A DNA stretch of 56,620 bases. Source: a virus. The notes beneath the pieces were generated by a model, which saw only the letters and a list, made by a program, of their open reading frames with translations, did no database searches and was not told where the DNA came from. Below, one piece after another: positions 9,248-48,770 of this stretch (position 1 is its first letter; each line of letters begins with the position of its first letter). The position numbers and the translations under genes are program-made. The stretch is taken from the IMG/VR virus record IMGVR_UViG_3300031566_000038; one strand, given 5' to 3'.

Positions 9248-10924
9248 TTAAGCTCTTTTCTTAGTCTTAAGGAACTCAAAGTACCCCAGGCCATCCATGC
9301 CAAAGACTTCAGCGACAACGTCCGAGATGTTAGCTCGCAACCGAGAAGAACCTTCCGATAAGCCAATTCGACCTATTCGGATATTTTTCAAAATGTCATT
9401 GAGATAAGCAGCGACTTTGGGTGAAGCCTTGCGGACATCCCGCATAGTTCGACTCTTGCTTAGAGCGGCCAGAGAAGAGATCTGAGCTTGGTCCCGCTTG
9501 GACAACACACCTTGAGGCCCGTTGGGCAAAGGACGCCTCTTGGCCGTCTTAGCGGCTTCTGTGGTCGTTCCTGACTCTTGACCTAACTTACCAGCGTCAG
9601 AACGGTGAAAAGCGAAAGTTAAAAGGTAGTCACCGTCGATGTCTAAAAAGATCATCTCGCCGGGTAAGCCTACGGAGGTAGTCAACTTTTGAGCTAAGAT
9701 GTCGGATCGGGTCTTCACGTCTTGCAAAGAAACATCACCAGAAGCCAAAGCCTCACTAAAACCTAATTTTTTAGCTATCGCTTGCCCAGCCTCGGGAGAA
9801 CCCATCTCGTCAATAGCCGCTACGATCGAATCGATCACAATGGTTTGAAGATCGTTGTCGTCTAAGACGTGGGTCTTAACAGCCGTCAAAACCTTTTGCT
9901 TCAACGCTTGGGTGTCATAAGGACCAACCACCTTACCACCACGTACAACACTCCTGACTGAAGCCTTGGCTGTAGCCGGGGCCTTGCCTACCGGAGGAAG
10001 ACCTAAAGTGAAGCGTAGAATCCTTTCTGCGTTAGCATCCCCAGGTATCCGGGTGTACTCTTCCAAAGCCCGTATAACCTCGTTCTCTGTAACGTCAGCT
10101 AAAATAGGGTCACGCTTTAACTTGAATGCCAACTTTTTACCAGCCATACCTCTTTTTCCTCCTATGGTCCCCTCTACAGGGGTGTCGATGTGCTCTTCAC
10201 GATCCACCGTTGGCTCGCTTTCAATTTCGTCTAACAACTCTTTTAAAAATGCTTCCTCGTCTACTTCCTCTTCCGTCTCCATCATCACTTCTTCTTCTTC
10301 GTCTTCTTCAACTTCATACACGCTAGGTTCTTCTGGACGGTCTTCAGCATCATCAACAAACTCAGTGCCGTCTACTACATCGGGATCTTCAACTTCAAAG
10401 TCTTCTTCCGCAGCTTCTTCCGCAGCCTTTTCTTCATCTAAGATGATAAGGTGTTCGTTGACCCCATCCCGGTAAGCTTGTTCTAAATCTTGTTTGTACT
10501 GCACGAGGATCTTTGAGGAGTCAGGGACCGTTTGAATTTGGTCCCCGATATTATCTTCGAAGGTCTTCACCAAATGCTGGGACAAAGAATAAGGCATAGG
10601 GATCTTGGTTTTGATCTCCTCGTTTCTTTCTTCACCCGCTGGAGCGGTCATGTCTACAGTATGCAGCTTTAGCTTGACTTCGTTTAGCCCGCCCTGGAAA
10701 GCTTTGAAAGCTAGCTTTGAGTACCACGACGCTATCTTTTCAATATAGTTTTGGGGAATGTTGTGCATCAACGCCTGGAAAGGCTCCGAGAACTCGAAGG
10801 TAGATGCGATTATCTTTTCCGTTTCGAAAGCTTGATTGACTAAATGAGCTTTCACCAAAGACGGGATAGTGTGAATCAGTGACCTGATTTCTTGTTTGCG
10901 TCGAGCTTCCATTGTGATTGTCAC
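9248..10924 (-). CDS. large protein with a central polyacidic segment (possible head/scaffold-related)
   Basis: 558 aa. A poly-E/D stretch (EEDEEEEVMMETEEEVDEEA) separates two globular parts. Tightly packed with neighbouring genes. Confidence 0.6.
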   Translation of the reverse strand: MTITMEARRKQEIRSLIHTIPSLVKAHLVNQAFETEKIIASTFEFSEPFQALMHNIPQNYIEKIASWYSKLAFKAFQGGLNEVKLKLHTVDMTAPAGEERNEEIKTKIPMPYSLSQHLVKTFEDNIGDQIQTVPDSSKILVQYKQDLEQAYRDGVNEHLIILDEEKAAEEAAEEDFEVEDPDVVDGTEFVDDAEDRPEEPSVYEVEEDEEEEVMMETEEEVDEEAFLKELLDEIESEPTVDREEHIDTPVEGTIGGKRGMAGKKLAFKLKRDPILADVTENEVIRALEEYTRIPGDANAERILRFTLGLPPVGKAPATAKASVRSVVRGGKVVGPYDTQALKQKVLTAVKTHVLDDNDLQTIVIDSIVAAIDEMGSPEAGQAIAKKLGFSEALASGDVSLQDVKTRSDILAQKLTTSVGLPGEMIFLDIDGDYLLTFAFHRSDAGKLGQESGTTTEAAKTAKRRPLPNGPQGVLSKRDQAQISSLAALSKSRTMRDVRKASPKVAAYLNDILKNIRIGRIGLSEGSSRLRANISDVVAEVFGMDGLGYFEFLKTKKRA

Positions 10925-10976
10925 CTTCCCAGGTAGATTTTATCCAAAACGTCGATTTAAAGTTAAGATAACTAAG

Positions 10977-10992
10977 GACGATTAAATAATCG
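10977..10992. promoter_or_regulatory. 16-bp perfect palindrome ACGATTAAATAATCGT (operator-like)
   Basis: Lies in the 110-bp gap between the minus-strand gene 9248-10924 and the plus-strand repeat gene. Confidence 0.35.
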
Positions 10993-11034
10993 TGATGTTT
11001 CTGTTATAGACTACTACACCCTGGGAGATTTGAT

Positions 11035-11610
11035 TTGTCTACACTGGTGGTTACGTTCAAAGCGGAAGCTGGCGGAATAACACTTTTCGAAGTACCGTTT
11101 AGTGTTCAATTACCTATCCAAATTCCGATACCGTTCCCGCCCCCGGACCCACTAGATTTTCTTTTAGGGCTACTCCTAGACGCTTTAGGGCTGCCGTTCC
11201 CTTTGGAGATTCCATCTTTGCCTTGCCCTTTTGAATTAGATCTATTATCTTTGTTACCACCGATACCGCCGATCATAATTCCCGGCTTGCCGCCTATACC
11301 GTTCCCTCCGCCTGACCCCTTAGATTTTCTAATAGGAGCGTTGTTAAATGCTTTGGGTTTGGCGTTTCCATTGGAGATTCCATCGCTGCCGTGCCCATTT
11401 GAATTGGATTTGTTATCGCTCTTACCGCCGATACCACCGATCATAATTCCCGGCTTGCCGCCTATACCGTTCCCTCCGCCTGACCCCTTAGATTTTCTAA
11501 TAGGAGCGTTGCTCGACTTCCTAGGTATCCCTGATATCGAGATACCTTCTTTGCCGTGTCCGTTCCCGGCAGGGATAACTTTGACAATAGACGTAAAGGT
11601 AATCCCTTAA
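11035..11610 (+). CDS. Pro/Leu/Ile-rich tandem-repeat protein (3 x 56 aa)
   Basis: TTG start with a GGGAGA RBS 6 nt upstream. Repeat copies 1 and 2 differ at 32 codons; 28 are synonymous in this frame (4 non-synonymous), whereas the same changes are mostly non-synonymous in the antisense ORF. Confidence 0.55.
   Translation: MSTLVVTFKAEAGGITLFEVPFSVQLPIQIPIPFPPPDPLDFLLGLLLDALGLPFPLEIPSLPCPFELDLLSLLPPIPPIIIPGLPPIPFPPPDPLDFLIGALLNALGLAFPLEIPSLPCPFELDLLSLLPPIPPIIIPGLPPIPFPPPDPLDFLIGALLDFLGIPDIEIPSLPCPFPAGITLTIDVKVIP
11131..11590. repeat. tandem 168-bp repeat, about 2.7 copies
   Basis: Units start at 11131, 11299 and 11467 and differ by point substitutions. Confidence 0.8.
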
Positions 11611-13214
11611 ACTAAATTACCTTTCATCTTTATAAATGCGGATGAAAAAGCCGTAGCCGGGTTCGCATTTATAAGGGCTGCGGTGTTAGGCGGCAACGGC
11701 GGGCCGGACGGGCCTGTGGGTGTGGCGTGAATATGAAGGTCAAACAAAAGTGCCAAAGGCTCCGCTAGTGTAGCAGAAAAAGCAGCCAAGGCTCCTAGGG
11801 CTATAGAACCACACTGTACGTCCAACTTAGGGCTGTTTAGTAAGATATTGAGGTTCGATTGAAGTTGTGCGGTGGTCTTACCGTCTAAGATCAAAGCTTG
11901 GAACGGTGACACCAGCCGAACGTCTTGACCCATAGAAACATAGGTGCCTAGGCCTGAAGTTAGGGAAGTCGTCAAAGTAGCTGCGTTCATGTAGAGATTT
12001 GAGCCGTCCCCAGCGTTCATCTTTACCGAGCCAACTTTGTCGAAGGTCAACCGAGATCCTGAAGAATGTATTACATTTATCGTTTCGGTGTCGCTGGTGT
12101 CGTCCATAATAAACGAATGCCCACCGCCGGTTGTAAGAGCAAACTTAGTCTCGCCTGCTACATCCGAAAATTGCATTGTTTGGCCGCCGCCACGAGACCG
12201 AAGCTCGAACAAACCGCCAATATTGAACCTTAAGGTCTCACCGATTTGATAGATCGCATTCTTTTGAATCTGGTAAGTTAAATCGCCACGGATCGTAGCC
12301 TTCTCGTCTAGGTCTACTACACGATTGTAACCGCCGCTGGGTATTAAGAGGTCGTAACCGAAAGCTGCACCGGTGCCGAGACTGAGGGCGTAGTTACCCG
12401 CTTCATCAATTTCAACTGTAGTAGCGGTGTCGTCGTTAGCGAAATATTCTTCTACGTGTCTTAGAGCGTTGCCGGATCGGCTGTGGGCAAGAGCGAAACC
12501 TTTTTGATTGAGGACGTGCCCGGATTGCTTGCGGAACAAGATCGCAGGCTCTTCGTTGCCGGGGTTTCTAAGTTGTTGGTAGTGTTCGGCGGTGAAAGAT
12601 CCTCGAACTTTCGGGTATCTTTTTTCCCACGAAGAAAAAGTGCCGTCTTCATTCTCCTTGGGCCGGGACACAATCCCGAATCGATCTTCGTCACCCAAGG
12701 TGTTGGAACGGTATTGCAAGCCTTGGCGGTGGTGTATAGGAGCCCTATCACCAGCTACCATCTTATCCTGGTCCGCCCACCGCCGTATCATACCGCCGTA
12801 GGTCTCGATCGAAGGGCGACGGCTCATGAATATTTGAGCATTACCGCTGGAAAGCATATCGATCTCACCCGGTAGCAAAGGCCGGTATAAGGACAAGCCG
12901 TTCTTGTAGCTAGCGATCTTGTTCCGAGCGCCTCGTTGAACGGTTGTCATAATCTGAGGCTTGGCTTCGTCCGACCTAAATTGTAAGACAAAGTTGGTCC
13001 CGCCTTCAGGCATCGCTCTGATCCAAGACTTTTGTGAGATAAAAGGGTGAGTCAAGGTCAAAGCTTGAGCGCTGTTACCGTAATGGCTGAAGAACCCAGA
13101 CTCGGTGTCGGGGGACACAGCGGTAAGAATCGCTCCAAAGGGAAACCGCAGCGATTTCCGCAGCGATTCTTCCCTTTCATCATCAATTGCTTGGTCTCTA
13201 TCGTAATTGGGCAT
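11607..13214 (-). CDS. putative baseplate/tail-spike-like structural protein
   Basis: 535 aa. The C-terminus HIHATPTGPSGPPLPP resembles the HxH tips of gpV/gp5-type spikes. Gly-rich beta-strand-like middle region. Confidence 0.5.
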   Translation of the reverse strand: MPNYDRDQAIDDEREESLRKSLRFPFGAILTAVSPDTESGFFSHYGNSAQALTLTHPFISQKSWIRAMPEGGTNFVLQFRSDEAKPQIMTTVQRGARNKIASYKNGLSLYRPLLPGEIDMLSSGNAQIFMSRRPSIETYGGMIRRWADQDKMVAGDRAPIHHRQGLQYRSNTLGDEDRFGIVSRPKENEDGTFSSWEKRYPKVRGSFTAEHYQQLRNPGNEEPAILFRKQSGHVLNQKGFALAHSRSGNALRHVEEYFANDDTATTVEIDEAGNYALSLGTGAAFGYDLLIPSGGYNRVVDLDEKATIRGDLTYQIQKNAIYQIGETLRFNIGGLFELRSRGGGQTMQFSDVAGETKFALTTGGGHSFIMDDTSDTETINVIHSSGSRLTFDKVGSVKMNAGDGSNLYMNAATLTTSLTSGLGTYVSMGQDVRLVSPFQALILDGKTTAQLQSNLNILLNSPKLDVQCGSIALGALAAFSATLAEPLALLFDLHIHATPTGPSGPPLPPNTAALINANPATAFSSAFIKMKGNLV

Positions 13215-15622: not shown

Positions 15623-15958
15623 TCACTCCGCCCTCCTCTTAAAGCACTGGCTTCCGCTACGATCCATCTGAGGTGAGGACCAGTAAGCCCGGACGCACTT
15701 GAATCTTTCTACCCGCACCAAATCTTCCAAACTAAATTCTCGGTAGGGGTTGTCACGATCTTTAAAGCTTACCCAGATATTAGGACCGTCACTCAGAATA
15801 TCTACTACAGGAATTTCCATAACCAACAGCCCTTCGTGTTCAAGCTGTTTTAGGTATTCGAGAACGGTAGCTTTTAAAGCCTGTAGAACCGTGGGGGATA
15901 CCAGTTCGTACCTGAACCGATCAAAGATTTCATCAAGCTCTTCTTGACAGCCTATCAT
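15623..15958 (-). CDS. hypothetical protein
   Basis: 111-aa ORF overlapping the upstream stop by 4 nt. Confidence 0.45.
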   Translation of the reverse strand: MIGCQEELDEIFDRFRYELVSPTVLQALKATVLEYLKQLEHEGLLVMEIPVVDILSDGPNIWVSFKDRDNPYREFSLEDLVRVERFKCVRAYWSSPQMDRSGSQCFKRRAE

Positions 15959-16746
15959 TTTTTCATCTCTTCAAACTTTTTAAACAAATCGTTGTCTTCT
16001 TGATTTTGTTTGTCCGTTTTGGCCCAATTTATCCCTAACGATTTCCAAGTGTCTTGGTTCTTAAGATCTTTTTCTTCGGGGTATACAGGCTTCACCGCAC
16101 AATATTGGTGACCCTTCTTATCCACCCCGCCCCCGACGATCCTTAGATGATCTCCCGGTTTTGCGCCAGGCGGCACCCAAACCATTTTGATACCCCACAA
16201 AGTCTCAACCGAGATGTAGTCACCTTTCAGCATGATCTCAAGTTTGATATTCTCGTCTACAAAAACATCTAAACCCTTCACCGTGTACCTGGGGTGCTTT
16301 TCAGCGGTCACGGTAACCAAAGCATCCCCGGTTTGATTCAGGCATTTCTTCCCTTTGCGCTTTTCAACATGCCGGAACCCTGAGATAGAGCCCGGTGGAA
16401 GATCAAAAGCAAAGGTGACCGGCTCGAAGTCTTCCGACTTGATAGGTTCTAAGTTCGCACCCAAGGAAATTTGGTTGTAAGACACCACTAACCGAGTGCC
16501 GTAAAAGGCATCATTGAAGGTGGTAATCATCTGGATGTTGAAAGTTAAGTCCCGTACCGGACGGATGCTTTGCTTCCGAGCGTATGACGGGTCGGTGATC
16601 ATCCGATAAGCGTGGGTGACCTCCACAAACTTATCGGAATCACCACCTTGGTCTGGGTGGTGTTCCAAGCACAATTTACGCCAAGCCTTCCGAAGAGTGT
16701 CCGGCGAATCGTCAGGTTTACAACCCAGTACCTCAAAATAATCCAT
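15955..16746 (-). CDS. DnaJ-like co-chaperone (J domain + DnaJ C-terminal domains, no Zn-finger/G-F region)
   Basis: N-terminal J domain with the HPD motif (KLCLEHHPDQGGD). The C-terminal part (GDALVTVTAEKHPRYTVKGLDVFVDENIKL...LWG.IKMVWVPPGAKPGDHLRIVGGG) matches the DnaJ CTD I/II pattern. Confidence 0.7.
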   Translation of the reverse strand: MDYFEVLGCKPDDSPDTLRKAWRKLCLEHHPDQGGDSDKFVEVTHAYRMITDPSYARKQSIRPVRDLTFNIQMITTFNDAFYGTRLVVSYNQISLGANLEPIKSEDFEPVTFAFDLPPGSISGFRHVEKRKGKKCLNQTGDALVTVTAEKHPRYTVKGLDVFVDENIKLEIMLKGDYISVETLWGIKMVWVPPGAKPGDHLRIVGGGVDKKGHQYCAVKPVYPEEKDLKNQDTWKSLGINWAKTDKQNQEDNDLFKKFEEMKK

Positions 16747-42242: not shown

Positions 42243-44813
42243 ATGAGCATTCGATTTTCCGGCATTTTGACGATCGATACCGTAACGGTAGTAACATCGC
42301 CTTATGTAGTAGAAGCTACATTTTCCGATTCGAGGGGCTATTTCGATGAAACTTTGATTGCTGTCGATAACGTGATTATCGACGCAAACAAAAATCGTTA
42401 TGTAGTCACCGACGTTACTAGCGTTACACCTTTGATCCTAGAATTAGAGTGGGACGACCTCGATGCGCCCGCCCAACCCACCACGGGCGATGGTATTATC
42501 GGTGTGGTTTCTTCCGCTAGGGAGCTTTTAGAAGTTACCCCGGACGCACCAACCGGTGTGGCAACCGCAGCCCGTAACATCGATTTCTTCAAAAACTTAG
42601 ATACCACACCAGATCTAGTTACCGGACCCGCTGGAGTCGCCGGAGCTACCGGCTTTGGCTTCGGCCAACAAGGTCTCACCGGCCCTTCCGGCGCTACAGG
42701 TATCGCAGGTATCATAGGACCACAAGGTGGCACAGGGCTAGCGGGTGTGGCTGGTGTGGCGGGAGCCGTCGGGACCAAAGGCGCTACCGGTCTCGGTGGG
42801 ACCAAAGGCGCTACCGGTACTAAAGGCAGCAACGGCACCCCAGGTGTTGACGGTGTAACAGGCCTTACCGGAGCCGTAGGAGCAATCGGAAGCACTGGTA
42901 TGGTAGGTTCCCAAGGATCTCAAGGTCTCACTGGAATTGACGGGACCAAAGGTGACACCGGAGCGGGCGGTTTGGTTGGCGACACCGGAGCGGGCGGCCA
43001 ACAAGGCCTAACCGGATTATCAGGTTCCACTGGTCTTCAAGGCGTCCAAGGCAACATAGGATCGCAAGGTACGACCGGAACAAGCGGTGCTACAGGATTA
43101 CTAGGTGGCACAGGTTTAATAGGTCAAACAGGGGTTTCGATAACCGGCCCACGAGGACACACCGGACCTTTCGGTCCTACAGGTTTAGCGGGAAGCACCG
43201 GAAGCCAAGGTGATACGGGTTCTCTGGGACTAAAAGGCGATACAGGCGTAGCGGGGACCAACGGCACCACCGGAGCGGGCGGCCAACAAGGGCAAACGGG
43301 AGCGTTAGGTCAAACCGGAGCCGATGGGGGTGTAGGCCAACAAGGTATCACAGGATTCGGCGGTACTACAGGCTTACTAGGAAGCACCGGAGCAACAGGA
43401 ATCCAAGGGTCCGTAGGCCAACAAGGTCTCACAGGCCCCGCAGGTGTAGGCGTAACAGGATCACAAGGTCAAACAGGTGCCGTAGTTCAAGGTGATACTG
43501 GAGTTTCGATAACCGGTCAGACCGGTTTGGCAGGACCGACGGGTAGTCAAGGATCGACAGGCCCGTTAGGTCTTGTTGGAGCCACCGGAGCAAGCGGCAC
43601 CAAAGGCGATACAGGTACGATCGGCGTACAAGGAAATACAGGCCTTAGTTTGCAGGGAAGCACAGGCCTTCAAGGTTCACAAGGTACAACCGGATTCAAT
43701 GGTAACGCTGGCTCTACAGGCGTAGCTGGCTTGCAAGGTGATACGGGTACAATAGGTGGTCAAGGCTCTGCCGGTGCTACAGGCGTTAACGGTCTTCAAG
43801 GGATAACTGGCGGTGTTGGTATTCCCGGTGAAACCGGAACACAAGGTGTAGTAGGAAATGCGGGAGCAACGGGTGTTGTCGGTACTCAGGGTATAACAGG
43901 ATTAAATGGTACTACAGGTATAGTAGGTAGTACAGGTGCTACTGGAATTAGCGGAGCCACCGGAGCCTTTGGAGTAATCGGAGCTACCGGAAGTCAGGGC
44001 ACCACGGGCGTAGCTGGAATCCAAGGAGCCCAAGGTTCCACCGGAGCCCAAGGCCAACAAGGAAATACCGGCCCAATAGGCACCACAGGTTCTATGGGTT
44101 CGCAAGGACAGCAAGGTCTGACCGGTGGACTCGGGCTCCAAGGTTTGACGGGATTATTAGGCGGCACTGGCGTACAAGGTGGCGTAGGAGTTGATGGTAC
44201 CACCGGGGTGAAAGGGCCTACAGGAGTACAGGGAGCGACGGGTCAACGAGGCTTCACAGGCATAGGCATTATAGGACCGCCAGGACCGATAGGCTCCACC
44301 GGATTCACTGGAACTACAGGTGTTCCCGGCGAAACTGGTGCTGGTTTACAAGGCCAAACCGGAGCGGGGGCCACAGGTCCAGAGGGTCACACAGGTGTCC
44401 AAGGAATTGCGGGAGCCACCGGCCCACAAGGTATAGCCAGAACCGCTTACAACTGGACGATCTCCAATAGTTCAGGTTTAATCGTTGGTACTTATATCGT
44501 TTACTTTGCGATGGAAGCGGTGACGATCGACGAGGTCGTGGTGACGATGATTAATTCAGGTACAGGCGGCACCGGCGCAACCCACTTTGAATTCTATAAA
44601 TTGGGAGCTTCCATTTTACCGACTTCACCACCGGTCGGTACCGGCGACTTCACGGTCATCATCCCGGCAGCGGGCGTGACGGTTATGAACGGCACCAAAG
44701 TAACCACCTTAGCTTTAGGTTTGGCCCTAAACGAATCTTTGGTAGTAGGGATCTCAGCGGCCCCGGACACCCCAGGTAATAACGCTTTGATTTCGATTCG
44801 AGCTTTGTTGTAG
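42243..44813 (+). CDS. collagen-like triple-helix repeat protein (fibre-like)
   Basis: About 600 aa of Gly-X-Y repeats rich in T/Q/A/V, from roughly residue 125 to 730, flanked by non-collagenous N- and C-terminal domains. Confidence 0.75.
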   Translation: MSIRFSGILTIDTVTVVTSPYVVEATFSDSRGYFDETLIAVDNVIIDANKNRYVVTDVTSVTPLILELEWDDLDAPAQPTTGDGIIGVVSSARELLEVTPDAPTGVATAARNIDFFKNLDTTPDLVTGPAGVAGATGFGFGQQGLTGPSGATGIAGIIGPQGGTGLAGVAGVAGAVGTKGATGLGGTKGATGTKGSNGTPGVDGVTGLTGAVGAIGSTGMVGSQGSQGLTGIDGTKGDTGAGGLVGDTGAGGQQGLTGLSGSTGLQGVQGNIGSQGTTGTSGATGLLGGTGLIGQTGVSITGPRGHTGPFGPTGLAGSTGSQGDTGSLGLKGDTGVAGTNGTTGAGGQQGQTGALGQTGADGGVGQQGITGFGGTTGLLGSTGATGIQGSVGQQGLTGPAGVGVTGSQGQTGAVVQGDTGVSITGQTGLAGPTGSQGSTGPLGLVGATGASGTKGDTGTIGVQGNTGLSLQGSTGLQGSQGTTGFNGNAGSTGVAGLQGDTGTIGGQGSAGATGVNGLQGITGGVGIPGETGTQGVVGNAGATGVVGTQGITGLNGTTGIVGSTGATGISGATGAFGVIGATGSQGTTGVAGIQGAQGSTGAQGQQGNTGPIGTTGSMGSQGQQGLTGGLGLQGLTGLLGGTGVQGGVGVDGTTGVKGPTGVQGATGQRGFTGIGIIGPPGPIGSTGFTGTTGVPGETGAGLQGQTGAGATGPEGHTGVQGIAGATGPQGIARTAYNWTISNSSGLIVGTYIVYFAMEAVTIDEVVVTMINSGTGGTGATHFEFYKLGASILPTSPPVGTGDFTVIIPAAGVTVMNGTKVTTLALGLALNESLVVGISAAPDTPGNNALISIRALL

Positions 44814-46016: not shown

Positions 46017-46270
46017 AATTAAAAAGAAATTCACCTTCGAACCGTTGCGGCTCAACGCATTAATGAGATGTAGTAGAACACGTTATAGAAACTCCTTGCG
46101 GTGTTAAAATCCGATGTTAGATTATAACTATTCCGAACGTTCAGGCGGAGGGTACGGGGAAGGGCTACAGTCCTTTTTTTTAGTGGGGAAGTCCCCCTTT
46201 TTCCTTCAAGGTCTATTCGGAACTTACGCTCCCGGTGTGGGAGTTAACAATTGAAAAGAGGGAGACTCTT

Positions 46271-47383
46271 ATGATTCTCAAGCGCAAACCTTATCGTGTG
46301 TCGATCGTCCTTGGTCGATTTCAAGTTTTCCACAAAGCCCACAAAAGATTATTAGACGAAGCGTTCACGTTGGCGGATATCGTTTTGGTTGTTTTAGGTT
46401 CGCACCAAGCGGCTTTGAACATCAAAAACCCGTTCACCACCGACGAAAGAGAAGAGATGATCCGCAAGGTCTACCCCGACCGAGATATCCATTTCGTGGT
46501 GGTGCCGGATCATATGTACGACGACGACCGCTGGCTCCTAGAAGTTCAAGCCAAGGTCCGGCAAAAGATTACGGCGCTTGGGATCGAAACTGAAATTGTC
46601 ATCCGTCCTTGGGAAGATCGAGCGGTAGCCCCTCCCAAAGTGAATAAAGATATTTGTATCTGCGGCTACTACAAAGATTCGAGTTCTTATTACCTCGACT
46701 ACTACAAAAACATATGGGGTTTCGAAACCCACGTAGCTTCTATCAACATTTCTAGCACCGACATCCGAACCGCTTTGTTTACCGATGGGCGAGTCCAGCC
46801 TGAGCAAAGTAATTTGCATTGGGCGCAACAAGTTCCCGACCCGGTCGTGGATTGGGTCTCTGCTAATTTTTTAGGCACTCCAAAGTTTGACTACCTCAAA
46901 GAAGAGTACGATTTCCTTGTTGATTATAAGGAGAAGTGGAACCCTACGGGCGATCGGCAATGGATCACCGGGGACGCTATAGTGGTTCAAAATGGTTTGG
47001 TCTTGATGGTGATTCGAAAAAATATGCCTGGCAAGGGGTTGTGGGCTTTACCTGGCGGTTTCATCAAGAAAACCGAAACGATCGACAACGGGGTGCTTAG
47101 GGAACTCAAAGAAGAGACCGTGATCGGGATGCACAAACACGAGCTTCGCAAACACTTCGTGGGTAGTGCAGTGTTCGACCACCCTGACAGAGACCTCCGG
47201 GGTAGGATCGTAACTCACGGGCACTTCTTCAAGCTGGGGAAGGACATCCCGCTACCGCACGTCAAAGGTAGCGACGATGCTTTGAAAGCTTTTTGGGTGC
47301 CGATAAACGAAGTCATCCAGAACGCCCACAACGTCTACGGCGATCATATCCATATCCTAAATTATTTGTCTCGTTTCAACTAA
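46271..47383 (+). CDS. nadM: bifunctional NMN adenylyltransferase / Nudix hydrolase (NadM/NatV-like)
   Basis: N-terminal LGRFQVFHKAH (GRFQPFH nucleotidyltransferase motif). Nudix box GGFIKKTETIDNGVLRELKEETV. GAGGGAGA RBS. Confidence 0.75.
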   Translation: MILKRKPYRVSIVLGRFQVFHKAHKRLLDEAFTLADIVLVVLGSHQAALNIKNPFTTDEREEMIRKVYPDRDIHFVVVPDHMYDDDRWLLEVQAKVRQKITALGIETEIVIRPWEDRAVAPPKVNKDICICGYYKDSSSYYLDYYKNIWGFETHVASINISSTDIRTALFTDGRVQPEQSNLHWAQQVPDPVVDWVSANFLGTPKFDYLKEEYDFLVDYKEKWNPTGDRQWITGDAIVVQNGLVLMVIRKNMPGKGLWALPGGFIKKTETIDNGVLRELKEETVIGMHKHELRKHFVGSAVFDHPDRDLRGRIVTHGHFFKLGKDIPLPHVKGSDDALKAFWVPINEVIQNAHNVYGDHIHILNYLSRFN

Positions 47384-47393
47384 GAGGTCTGTT

Positions 47394-48770
47394 ATGTCTG
47401 ATTTTTACAGCTTTTTAAGCAATCTTATTTTTCTCACTGACTCTTACAAGGTCTCCCACTGGCGTCAATACCCGAAGTCTATCACCAAGATGTTATCTTA
47501 TTTTTCCAGCCGGGGTGGGTTGTACCCTGAAACGGTAGCGAATGTTTTGCTCCACTACCAAATGAAGCGGTTGGAAGGGGTGCAAATCACCCAAGAAAAG
47601 ATCGAAGAAGCGGCGGAACTTTTTAAATTTCACTTCGGTGATGAAAGCATTTTCAACCGTGCGGGTTGGGAATATATCCTAAAGGAGCACGGTGGTCGGC
47701 TACCGTTGAAGATCAAAGCGGTCGCCGAAGGCACGGTAGTACCCCACGGCAATGTTTTGATTGTGGCTGAAAGCACCGATCCTAAATGTCCTTGGGTCAC
47801 CAACTACTTCGAAACCTTCATGGTGCAAAATTGGTACCCTTCCACGGTGGCTACTTTTTCGTACACGGCTAAGAATCTTATCAACCGCTACCTCGAAGAA
47901 ACCGGTGACCCTGCCGGTTTGCCTTACAAATTGCACGACTTCGGGGTCAGGGGCACTAGCAGCATGGAATCGGCAGCGATCGGTGGGGCGGCTCACCTCC
48001 TAAATTTCTCTGGCACCGACAACCTACCCGCTATGGCTTTGCTCAAAAAGTTCTACGGGGGGTACGTGGGGAACTCTATTCCGGCAGCGGAGCACTCCAC
48101 AGCGTGCTCTTGGATCAAAGAAAAAGATTTCTTCCGTCACATGATCGAAGAATTCCCAGGGATGGTAGCGGTGGTGTCCGATACCTATGACATCTACGAA
48201 GCTTGCCGGGTTTGGTCCACCGAGCTTAAAGACCAAGTTCTGGCCCGAAAAGACGGCTGTGTGGTTATCCGGCCTGACTCGGGTGACCCGCTAGAAGTCT
48301 TGGAAAAGATCTTCGAGATCCTAGGGGAGAACTTCAAGAACGAGATCGTGGTAAACAAAAAAGGTTACAGGGTATTACCACCCCAGGTGCGAGTGATCCA
48401 AGGAGATGGAGTAGACATAGAAGCTATCGGCGATATCTTAGAGATGCTGAAGTTGAAAGGTTGGTCGGCAGACAATATAGCTTTCGGCTGTGGTGGTGCT
48501 CTTTTACAAAAATTGAATAGGGACACTAATAAGTTTGCTTTCAAAGCGTCCGCCGTTTTGGACAACGGGGTATGGCGGGAAATAAGGAAGAACCCGGTCA
48601 CCGACCCCGGTAAAGCAAGCAAAGCGGGCTTATTAGATCTTGTCAAAATCGACGGAACCTTTACTACCACTTCACCTTCGGGGAATTCATTGCTTGCGGT
48701 AGTTTTCGAAAATGGTATGGTGCCGCCGAGCGATAGTCTGGAAACTATTCGCACCCGCTTAGTGGTCTAA
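47394..48770 (+). CDS. nadV: nicotinamide phosphoribosyltransferase (NAMPT/NadV)
   Basis: 458 aa. HDFGVRGTSSMESAAIGGAAHLLNFSGTDN is typical of NAMPT. Lies 10 nt after nadM. Confidence 0.8.
   Translation: MSDFYSFLSNLIFLTDSYKVSHWRQYPKSITKMLSYFSSRGGLYPETVANVLLHYQMKRLEGVQITQEKIEEAAELFKFHFGDESIFNRAGWEYILKEHGGRLPLKIKAVAEGTVVPHGNVLIVAESTDPKCPWVTNYFETFMVQNWYPSTVATFSYTAKNLINRYLEETGDPAGLPYKLHDFGVRGTSSMESAAIGGAAHLLNFSGTDNLPAMALLKKFYGGYVGNSIPAAEHSTACSWIKEKDFFRHMIEEFPGMVAVVSDTYDIYEACRVWSTELKDQVLARKDGCVVIRPDSGDPLEVLEKIFEILGENFKNEIVVNKKGYRVLPPQVRVIQGDGVDIEAIGDILEMLKLKGWSADNIAFGCGGALLQKLNRDTNKFAFKASAVLDNGVWREIRKNPVTDPGKASKAGLLDLVKIDGTFTTTSPSGNSLLAVVFENGMVPPSDSLETIRTRLVV

Follow-up and report, generated by a model that had tools for sequence, protein, structure and literature searches.

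A three-repeat, proline-rich protein family encoded beside the probable central tail spike gene of large uncultured phages, and its possible place on the spike axis

The viral DNA considered here, IMG/VR record IMGVR_UViG_3300031566_000038, is a stretch of 56,620 nucleotides (hereafter the window) in which a small tandem-repeat gene is read on the plus strand between two minus-strand neighbours (Table 1). The gene, at 11035-11610, encodes a protein of 191 amino acids (aa), converges on a 535-aa gene that probably encodes the central tail spike, and diverges from a 558-aa gene that lies where distant relatives carry a tail-tube-initiator or baseplate gene. The protein is acidic (isoelectric point, pI, ~4.1) and rich in Pro (25%), Leu (21%) and Ile (13%); six contigs carry it in identical form, as a word-indexed protein search showed. 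The units of 168 bp, their starts and their translation, as described in a first-pass annotation made from the sequence alone, were recovered by translation, and Tandem Repeats Finder reports a period of 168, 1.9 copies and 90% matches over 11195-11511. The initial 45 nt of unit 3 repeat unit 2 exactly. The N-terminal segment, whose first ~7 residues are kept throughout the family alignments, is predicted as a beta-hairpin in a low-confidence AlphaFold2 (AF2) model; the helix of unit 1 was taken from a low-confidence model as well, and the periodicity that places its Asp residues on one face was judged by eye. The TTG start and its upstream GGGAGA motif were likewise found where that annotation had put them. 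In alignment the TTG falls at the ATG with which homologues begin (MSTLVV / MATLVI); each homologue has a Shine-Dalgarno-like motif upstream.

Table 1. Coordinates of the small gene, its parts and its neighbours in the window.
Feature	Position	Strand	Description or basis
Divergent neighbour	9248..10924	-	554 aa from ATG 10912
Divergent spacer	10913..11034		122 bp; candidate promoter/operator region
Shine-Dalgarno-like motif GGGAGA	11023..11028	+	six bases 5' of TTG; sequence; homologue starts preceded by comparable purine-rich motifs
Family-member gene	11035..11610	+	191 aa, TTG start; open reading frame, dN/dS between units, homologues
N-terminal segment	11035..11130	+	MSTLVVTFKAEAGGITLFEVPFSVQLPIQIPI; family alignments
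Antisense Gly/Ser/Lys-rich open reading frame	11106..11444	-	112 aa; judged a compositional shadow, not a gene
Repeat unit 1	11131..11298	+	56 aa: PFPPPDPLDFL, predicted Leu-rich helix with spaced Asp, IPSLPCP, Pro/Ile-rich linker
Repeat unit 2	11299..11466	+	56 aa; 4 aa and 34 nt changed relative to unit 1
Repeat unit 3	11467..11607	+	shortened and diverged; closes with the family C-terminal beta-strand ITLTIDVKVIP
Convergent neighbour	11607..13214	-	535 aa; probable central tail spike, putative gp5/gp138-like beta-helix

The differences between the repeat units indicate which strand is coding. Between units 1 and 2 there are 34 nucleotide differences, of which 11, 1 and 22 fall at plus-frame codon positions 1, 2 and 3, and these alter 28 plus-frame codons, 24 of them synonymously and four with a change of amino acid (L/I, L/A, D/N, P/A). 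The four replacements are exactly those of the first-pass annotation, whose totals of 32 changed and 28 synonymous codons were too high. Read in the frame of the antisense open reading frame (ORF) 11106-11444, the same substitutions yield 15 non-synonymous and 10 synonymous codons, in keeping with the earlier description of that frame as scrambled (K/N, S/K, H/Q, F/S, I/K). The comparison of non-synonymous (dN) and synonymous (dS) divergence that had been proposed as a check gives, by the Nei-Gojobori method, dN 0.059 and dS 1.25 in the plus frame as against dN 0.19 and dS 0.44 in the antisense frame. Random placement of 34 substitutions, with transitions and transversions in the observed mix, gave a mean of 20.8 non-synonymous codons over 20,000 trials, none of which fell below 11 (observed 4; P<5e-5). 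The units of L004, one of the related loci, give dN 0.033 and dS 0.43, and most other family members also have an excess of synonymous change between their own units. Between orthologues of the window and locus L016, the proportion of synonymous differences (pS) is 0.78, which is saturated, and that of non-synonymous differences (pN) is 0.105. The word-indexed search returned a 190-aa homologue, P0002, with 54% identity and three repeats, and in its locus, L004, the plus-strand ORF is intact, with an ATG start and, ahead of it, AGGGAGGG as ribosome-binding site; the antisense frame there falls into two pieces, of 62 aa and 66 aa. This is the reverse of the case that had been named as a refutation, namely a homologue with the minus-strand ORF kept and the plus-strand one broken. 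Among 14 members checked frame by frame, the sense frame is uninterrupted in all and the antisense frame contains stops in 10. The substitution pattern, the intact sense frames of homologues and the aligned starts therefore establish the plus-strand frame at 11035-11610, which the first-pass annotation had favoured, as a true coding gene, with strong purifying selection acting in that frame alone.

The remark that both strands are open holds for the plus-strand ORF and the 112-aa antisense ORF; over the whole gene, the antisense frame contains two stops. Third codon positions of that frame coincide with sense third positions, and an antisense stop can arise only where the sense frame has Tyr after a codon ending in T or C, or His or Gln after a codon ending in T. 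Family proteins contain only one to six Tyr, His and Gln residues in total, and the window protein contains two; its two antisense stops thus occupy about all the available sites, so that no avoidance of stops is seen. The scarcity of Tyr, His and Gln in the protein largely accounts for the openness of the antisense frame, and the ORF is a by-product of amino-acid composition. The idea that this Gly/Ser/Lys-rich ORF is the real gene, that the region is a non-coding tandem repeat, or that both strands code, could draw on several members in which the frame is largely or entirely open across the gene (no stops in L014, L011, L023 and L021), but with stops only at rare sense residues and present in most members, no conserved start and a majority of non-synonymous changes between units, it is almost certainly wrong.

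Comparison of sequences indicates that the 191-aa protein belongs to a previously undescribed family of proteins of ~126-266 aa, with about 21 distinct lineages. When a two-sequence profile was run with HMMER against all of 1.84 billion representative proteins, only P0003-P0006 were added as true members; a fifth new match was a spurious repeat protein. The two flanking genes then served as baits for further loci: JGI metagenomes were searched with the N-terminal part of the 558-aa protein, and IMG/VR with the C-terminal part of the 535-aa protein. When all six-frame ORFs of these loci were scanned with a family hidden Markov model, each locus that was sufficiently related proved to hold a member (L004-L037); L070, a 328-kb contig, carries another. 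The six-sequence alignment was too divergent for pattern scans, and a second word-indexed homologue search missed known members, its candidates apparently swamped by unrelated proteins. IMG/VR scans with the small-protein alignment or with the N-terminus of the 558-aa protein found nothing. The spike C-terminus had no match in GTDB genomes either, which leaves no prophage or host clue. Among 50,697 GenBank phage records, tblastn of the window protein and its L032 and L022 relatives found no relative, and neither megablast of the window from 9 to 14 kb nor tblastn of the 535-aa and L070 spikes yielded a usable match to GenBank phages. The L032 spike weakly matches Myxococcus phage Mx1, but the Mx1 locus has no family member. 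As judged from these searches, the family is so far confined to uncultured, large myovirus-like phages with contigs of up to 328 kb. The earlier statement that the protein has no obvious family was borne out: no family member has a meaningful match in Pfam, PHROGs, NCBIfam or PDB sequences, the window protein having no Pfam match at E<=0.01 and the family profile no PDB sequence match at E<=10. The sole repeated match is compositional, to the Pro-rich region of the GBS Bac protein (three members).

Family members share an N-terminus of the form M-[AS]-T-[LM]-V-V-T and a C-terminal strand V-T-[IV]-E, and between these lie Pro-rich repeats that open with IPFPP-like motifs; proline content ranges from 15 to 29%. 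In the clade to which the window belongs, here called the inverted clade for reasons given below, the proteins are acidic (pI 4.1-4.6) and each repeat carries a Leu-rich, predicted helix with spaced Asp (DPLDFLLGLLLDAL; longer in L014 and L010), after which comes IPxLPCP with its single Cys. By eye the helix is amphipathic; its assignment comes from the low-confidence AF2 model. The other clades are mostly basic, with pI up to ~10, and have (LPx)n tracts instead of the helix and Phe, Leu or Ile at the Cys position. The one conserved Cys per repeat of the first-pass annotation is thus a feature of the inverted clade and not of the family at large. Since charge and Cys both vary by clade, neither is essential to family function. 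No signal peptide, lipobox or uninterrupted hydrophobic or transmembrane segment is visible in the sequence, as Asp and Pro break every hydrophobic stretch.

The number of repeats varies less than their length. Three repeats are found in 19 of the 21 lineages, with units of 32-72 aa; the L011 clade and L028 have two, which may reflect assembly collapse. This answers the earlier suggestion that repeat number be compared among relatives: it is nearly, not wholly, constant. That copy number stays steady across a twofold range of unit length suggests that copy number is itself constrained. Units within one genome are more alike (pS 0.25-0.61) than orthologous units of different genomes (pS ~0.8), the same holds at non-synonymous sites, and adjacent units share identical stretches of 45-93 nt. 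The repeats are thus a case of ordinary concerted evolution, in which duplication or gene conversion is followed by synonymous drift under strong protein constraint. A paradoxical parallel evolution of the units at the protein level was considered and rejected, because synonymous sites too are closer within a genome than between orthologues.

The position of the gene is kept more strictly than its sequence. In tblastn searches of all loci with the window proteins, the small gene is always flanked on one side by the 535-aa homologue, at its 3' end, and on the other by the 558-aa homologue, at its 5' end, a few loci having extra genes inserted at the junction with the spike gene. In all loci the family gene stands directly downstream of the spike gene or one gene away, even where spike identity drops to ~30%. 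In the distant loci L032 and L035 the order is tape measure (phrog_1533), tail protein with lysin activity (phrog_1015) and spike (phrog_430, phrog_4011), followed by one unannotated gene, the family member and a protein of 616-694 aa that matches Pfam Phage_tail_tube_init (51 bits) and the baseplate protein phrog_975. This gene order argues that the family is a core gene of the baseplate-centre module. In the window the corresponding place is held by the 558-aa neighbour, which according to the ORF list begins with a GTG at 10924, whereas homologues and gene calls use the ATG at 10912 (MEARRK), preceded by GGGAAGGTGA. Every related locus conserves its N-terminal 155 aa, at 42-82% identity, and the remainder, which includes a long acidic low-complexity tract, is far less conserved. 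BLAST detected no homology between this protein and the tube-initiator proteins of L032 and L035, and PHROG and Pfam scans of its relatives were negative.

Where the small gene converges on the spike gene, relatives have a hotspot of insertion: L010 carries an I-HmuI-like HNH endonuclease there (3394-4458), and unrelated genes of 110-165 aa occur at L004 5696-6172 and L005 2896-3725. In L070 a 163-aa protein encoded three genes downstream (12176-12667) ends in a long (EP/KP)n tract resembling a TonB-type spacer. A DnaJ gene (15955-16746) is found directly upstream of the hub/spike genes.

The 535-aa convergent neighbour, whose stop codon overlaps that of the small gene by 4 nt, is probably the central tail spike, on the strength of weak-to-moderate sequence matches and a model. 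Its C-terminus contains the motif LAEPLAxLFDxHxHxxPxGPxxPPLPPNTAA, in which D-x-H-x-H is invariant in 10 homologues, with the HxH lying ~40 residues from the end. Residues 358-405 align by hhalign (95% over 48 columns) to the IMG/VR protein L003, which passes Pfam Gp5_trimer_C and is adjoined by gp25-like and gp6-like baseplate genes. The window protein itself has no Pfam match, and its L015 orthologue matches Gp5_trimer_C at E 0.004, below the cut-off. The C-terminal half matches L035_376 (E 5e-28) and L032_351 (E 6e-25), and L035_376 in turn matches phrog_430 (E 1.4e-4); the PHROG labels are baseplate protein and T4 gp5-type hub/lysozyme. An AlphaFold model from 18 sequences is confident over residues 210-460, where it predicts short strands at regular spacing. 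Within the conserved C-terminal codons of the spike gene, 20 nt past the small-gene stop, lies a perfect 11-nt inverted repeat (TTATAAATGCG...CGCATTTATAA, 23-nt loop, 11630-11674), which has no T-run and was not seen by eye downstream of the gene in L016.

The orientation of the small gene divides the loci. In the window and in L016, L004-6, L015, L014 and L010 it is antisense to its neighbours, converging on the spike gene and diverging from the 558-aa gene, frequently with the same 4-nt stop/stop overlap with the spike gene. In all other lineages it is co-directional with them and tightly spaced, with a 10-nt gap after the spike gene in L021, a start/stop overlap in L070 and overlapping boundaries in L032 and L035. 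A neighbour-joining tree of the spike proteins groups the inverted loci in one clade, sister to co-directional loci, and this pattern indicates that the orientation is derived, arising from a single in-place inversion of ~0.6 kb in a lineage whose ancestor carried the gene co-directional with the spike gene. The first-pass annotation was right that the gene opposes the local direction of transcription in the window; among relatives the arrangement is the exception. A site-specific invertible segment of the Gin/Cin type was considered as an explanation. No inverted repeats were found flanking the gene, and four contigs from different samples have identical orientation and sequence; the gene is therefore not an active invertible switch. 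No invertase occurs among the neighbouring genes that were scanned, although no systematic search was made.

An inverted gene would need its own promoter, for which the divergent spacer is a candidate. Conserved in this spacer throughout the inverted clade is a box, TTTAAAGTTAAGATAACTAAGG (10956-10977; TAAAGTTAAGA), which in the window is overlapped by a sigma-70-like match on the plus strand, TTAAGA-16-AATAAT (10963-10990). The box CTTAACTTTAA does not stand out as a recurrent promoter motif in the window (4 matches, 2 expected), and the conserved box does not recur elsewhere. In L014 (~195-215) the box forms a near-perfect 16-nt palindrome (CTCTTAAAGTTAAGAG). In L011, L021-L026 and L028, a motif TGT(A/C)TTATATT(T)AAA occurs ~30-60 nt downstream of the small gene and before the 558-aa homologue, of which it may be the promoter; the motif of this co-directional clade, TTATATTWAA, is absent from the window.

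Any proposal for the function of the family has to start from the protein and its place in the genome. In phage T4, gp5.4 is a monomeric spike tip whose three repeats give it local threefold symmetry and whose gene adjoins the spike gene (PMC12407873), and phiKZ gp163.1, encoded next to gp164, follows the same precedent (PMC13250141). From this precedent, the near-constant three repeats and the adjacency to the spike gene, we propose by analogy that the product is a monomeric, pseudo-threefold subunit or assembly factor that binds the axis of the spike or hub, a reading to which we give a probability of about 40%. Local threefold symmetry would come from the three repeats of one monomer, which would be placed at or about the threefold axis of the spike/hub trimer; its role could be structural, as a cap, collar or plug, or it could be an assembly factor dedicated to the spike. 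In the inverted clade, the Cys of the LPCP motifs may form a buried three-Cys cluster or a metal site on the pseudo-axis.

Several observations weigh against this proposal. Spikes with an HxH motif are proposed to form their own iron-loaded apex, without a separate tip protein (PMC12407873), and by that rule the invariant HxH of the partner spike argues against the tip version in particular. For a subunit required in fixed stoichiometry, the separation from the spike operon that the inversion brings about would not be expected. The assignment of the partner as a spike is itself limited by the strength of its matches, and the structural matches of the spike model are mixed with generic single-layer beta-sheet folds. 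The two-repeat members, the flip of charge between clades from pI ~4 to ~10 and the restriction of the Cys to one clade count in the same direction, and the AlphaFold model of the 191-aa protein is unusable (predicted local distance difference test, pLDDT, 36 from two sequences). The wider claim that the family constitutes a new, non-PAAR class of monomeric, threefold-repeated proteins capping or wrapping the trimeric spikes of contractile tails, those of the HxH type included, must be called doubtful; each Pro-rich repeat would then bind one face or chain of the spike, and the three Cys would form an axial metal or thiol cluster.

The inversion is more easily accommodated if the product is a dedicated folding or assembly chaperone of the trimeric spike or hub, made in infected cells and absent from the virion. 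Many phages encode a chaperone directly downstream of the gene for its trimeric fibre or spike client. The family gene adjoins the spike gene in every lineage, and the tolerance of inversion and of a separate promoter suits a factor without fixed stoichiometry. Set against this, the protein has no similarity to known chaperone families, its 15-29% proline with polyproline II (PPII)-like (LPx)n tracts would be unusual for a chaperone, and a chaperone does not call for a near-constant three repeats. This explanation is on balance unlikely.

A weaker candidate still is an envelope-active protein that travels with the spike, is ejected, and acts on the periplasm or inner membrane while the genome is being delivered, its active parts being the Leu-rich, Asp-spaced helices of the inverted clade or rigid Lys/Pro PPII rods in the others. 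The gene lies within the spike/tape-measure module, the P2 spike is known to translocate into the periplasm during infection (PMC12407873), the segment DPLDFLLGLLLDAL is amphipathic by eye, and the (LPK)n tracts resemble Pro-rich spacers that span the periplasm. The sequence, though, lacks a visible signal peptide, lipobox or uninterrupted transmembrane segment, and the reversal of charge between clades speaks against a conserved electrostatic interaction with a membrane.

A role apart from the tail, as a moron or accessory early gene active for example in anti-defence or superinfection exclusion, is improbable: it would explain transcription against the late structural genes, from the promoter of its own that the window gene needs, and the adjoining insertion hotspot with its HNH endonuclease in L010, but not the position kept at ~30% spike identity, nor an ancestral state in which the gene was co-directional and tightly packed with structural genes, the signature of a core module.

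Elsewhere in the window, an 884-aa ORF at 2489-5143 (plus strand) matches Pfam MVP_shoulder (95 bits), Vault_3 (37 bits) and Band_7/SPFH (24 bits); its product is a major-vault-protein-like protein on a phage-like contig, and it has no PHROG match. An 856-aa protein at 42243-44813 (plus strand), possibly a fibre, contains ~10 collagen triple-helix repeat stretches (Pfam Collagen, 223 bits). At 46235-48770 (plus strand) lies a pair of nicotinamide adenine dinucleotide (NAD) salvage genes, encoding a cytidylyltransferase-like/NUDIX protein and then a NAMPT/NAPRTase protein.

What is new here is a conserved and strongly constrained ORFan family that appears to belong to the baseplate module of a large, uncultured phage group; it offers a defined target for the structural biology of phages rather than a new kind of system. 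If its members do bind the spike axis, they would represent a second, unrelated solution to the problem that PAAR proteins solve, of fitting a monomer onto a trimer, and would be at odds with the rule that a spike with HxH has no partner. The locus is also a natural example of the in-place inversion of a single gene within a late operon, and it shows that composition alone can yield long antisense ORFs that mislead annotation.

Known systems resemble the locus in different respects. The occurrence of a tail-module gene in either orientation relative to its neighbours recalls the invertible segments of Mu (G/Gin) and P1 (C/Cin); unlike these, the inversion in the window is fixed in one clade, and flanking inverted repeats were not found. 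Like the iron-loaded HxH spikes of P2 (gpV) and phi92 (gp138), the 535-aa neighbour carries a C-terminal HxH, a putative metal motif, but it is much longer, with an N-terminal part of ~330 aa, it continues for ~40 residues past the HxH, including the conserved PPLPP, and it has no Pfam match when searched alone. The top structural matches of the spike model are the complexes in which a Pro-rich motif of STIL/Ana2 lies across the single-layer beta-sheet of the CPAP/SAS-4 G-box (PDB 4by2, 4bxr); the likeness is a structural analogy only, an artificial product of modelling a trimeric beta-helix as a monomer with AF2, and it makes it possible to picture each of the three repeats binding one face of the spike prism in a STIL/CPAP-like manner. 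Closer in genomic setting is RB43 orf205w, an ORFan downstream of a gp5-like spike gene at the site of T4 genes 5.1-5.4, which has been proposed as a non-PAAR tip (PMC12407873); set against the window protein by description only, it is larger (~690 aa) and of another predicted architecture. From the PAAR tips (T4 gp5.4, phiKZ gp163.1 and the PAAR proteins of type VI secretion systems, T6SS; PF05488) the window protein differs in the absence of PAAR motifs and of any Pfam match, no match to the PAAR profile (PF05488 / DUF4280) being found among 14 family members at E<=1. It is also 1.3-2.7 times longer and Pro/Leu/Ile-rich, with predicted helices or PPII tracts in place of the three-hairpin cone. 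In place of the His3Cys metal site of PAAR tips, its sequence contains no His, and three Cys are found in the inverted clade only; its partner spike, moreover, has an HxH. What the two have in common is the architecture from which the threefold-axis proposal was drawn: a small protein with three internal repeats, whose gene stands by the spike gene in the hub module.

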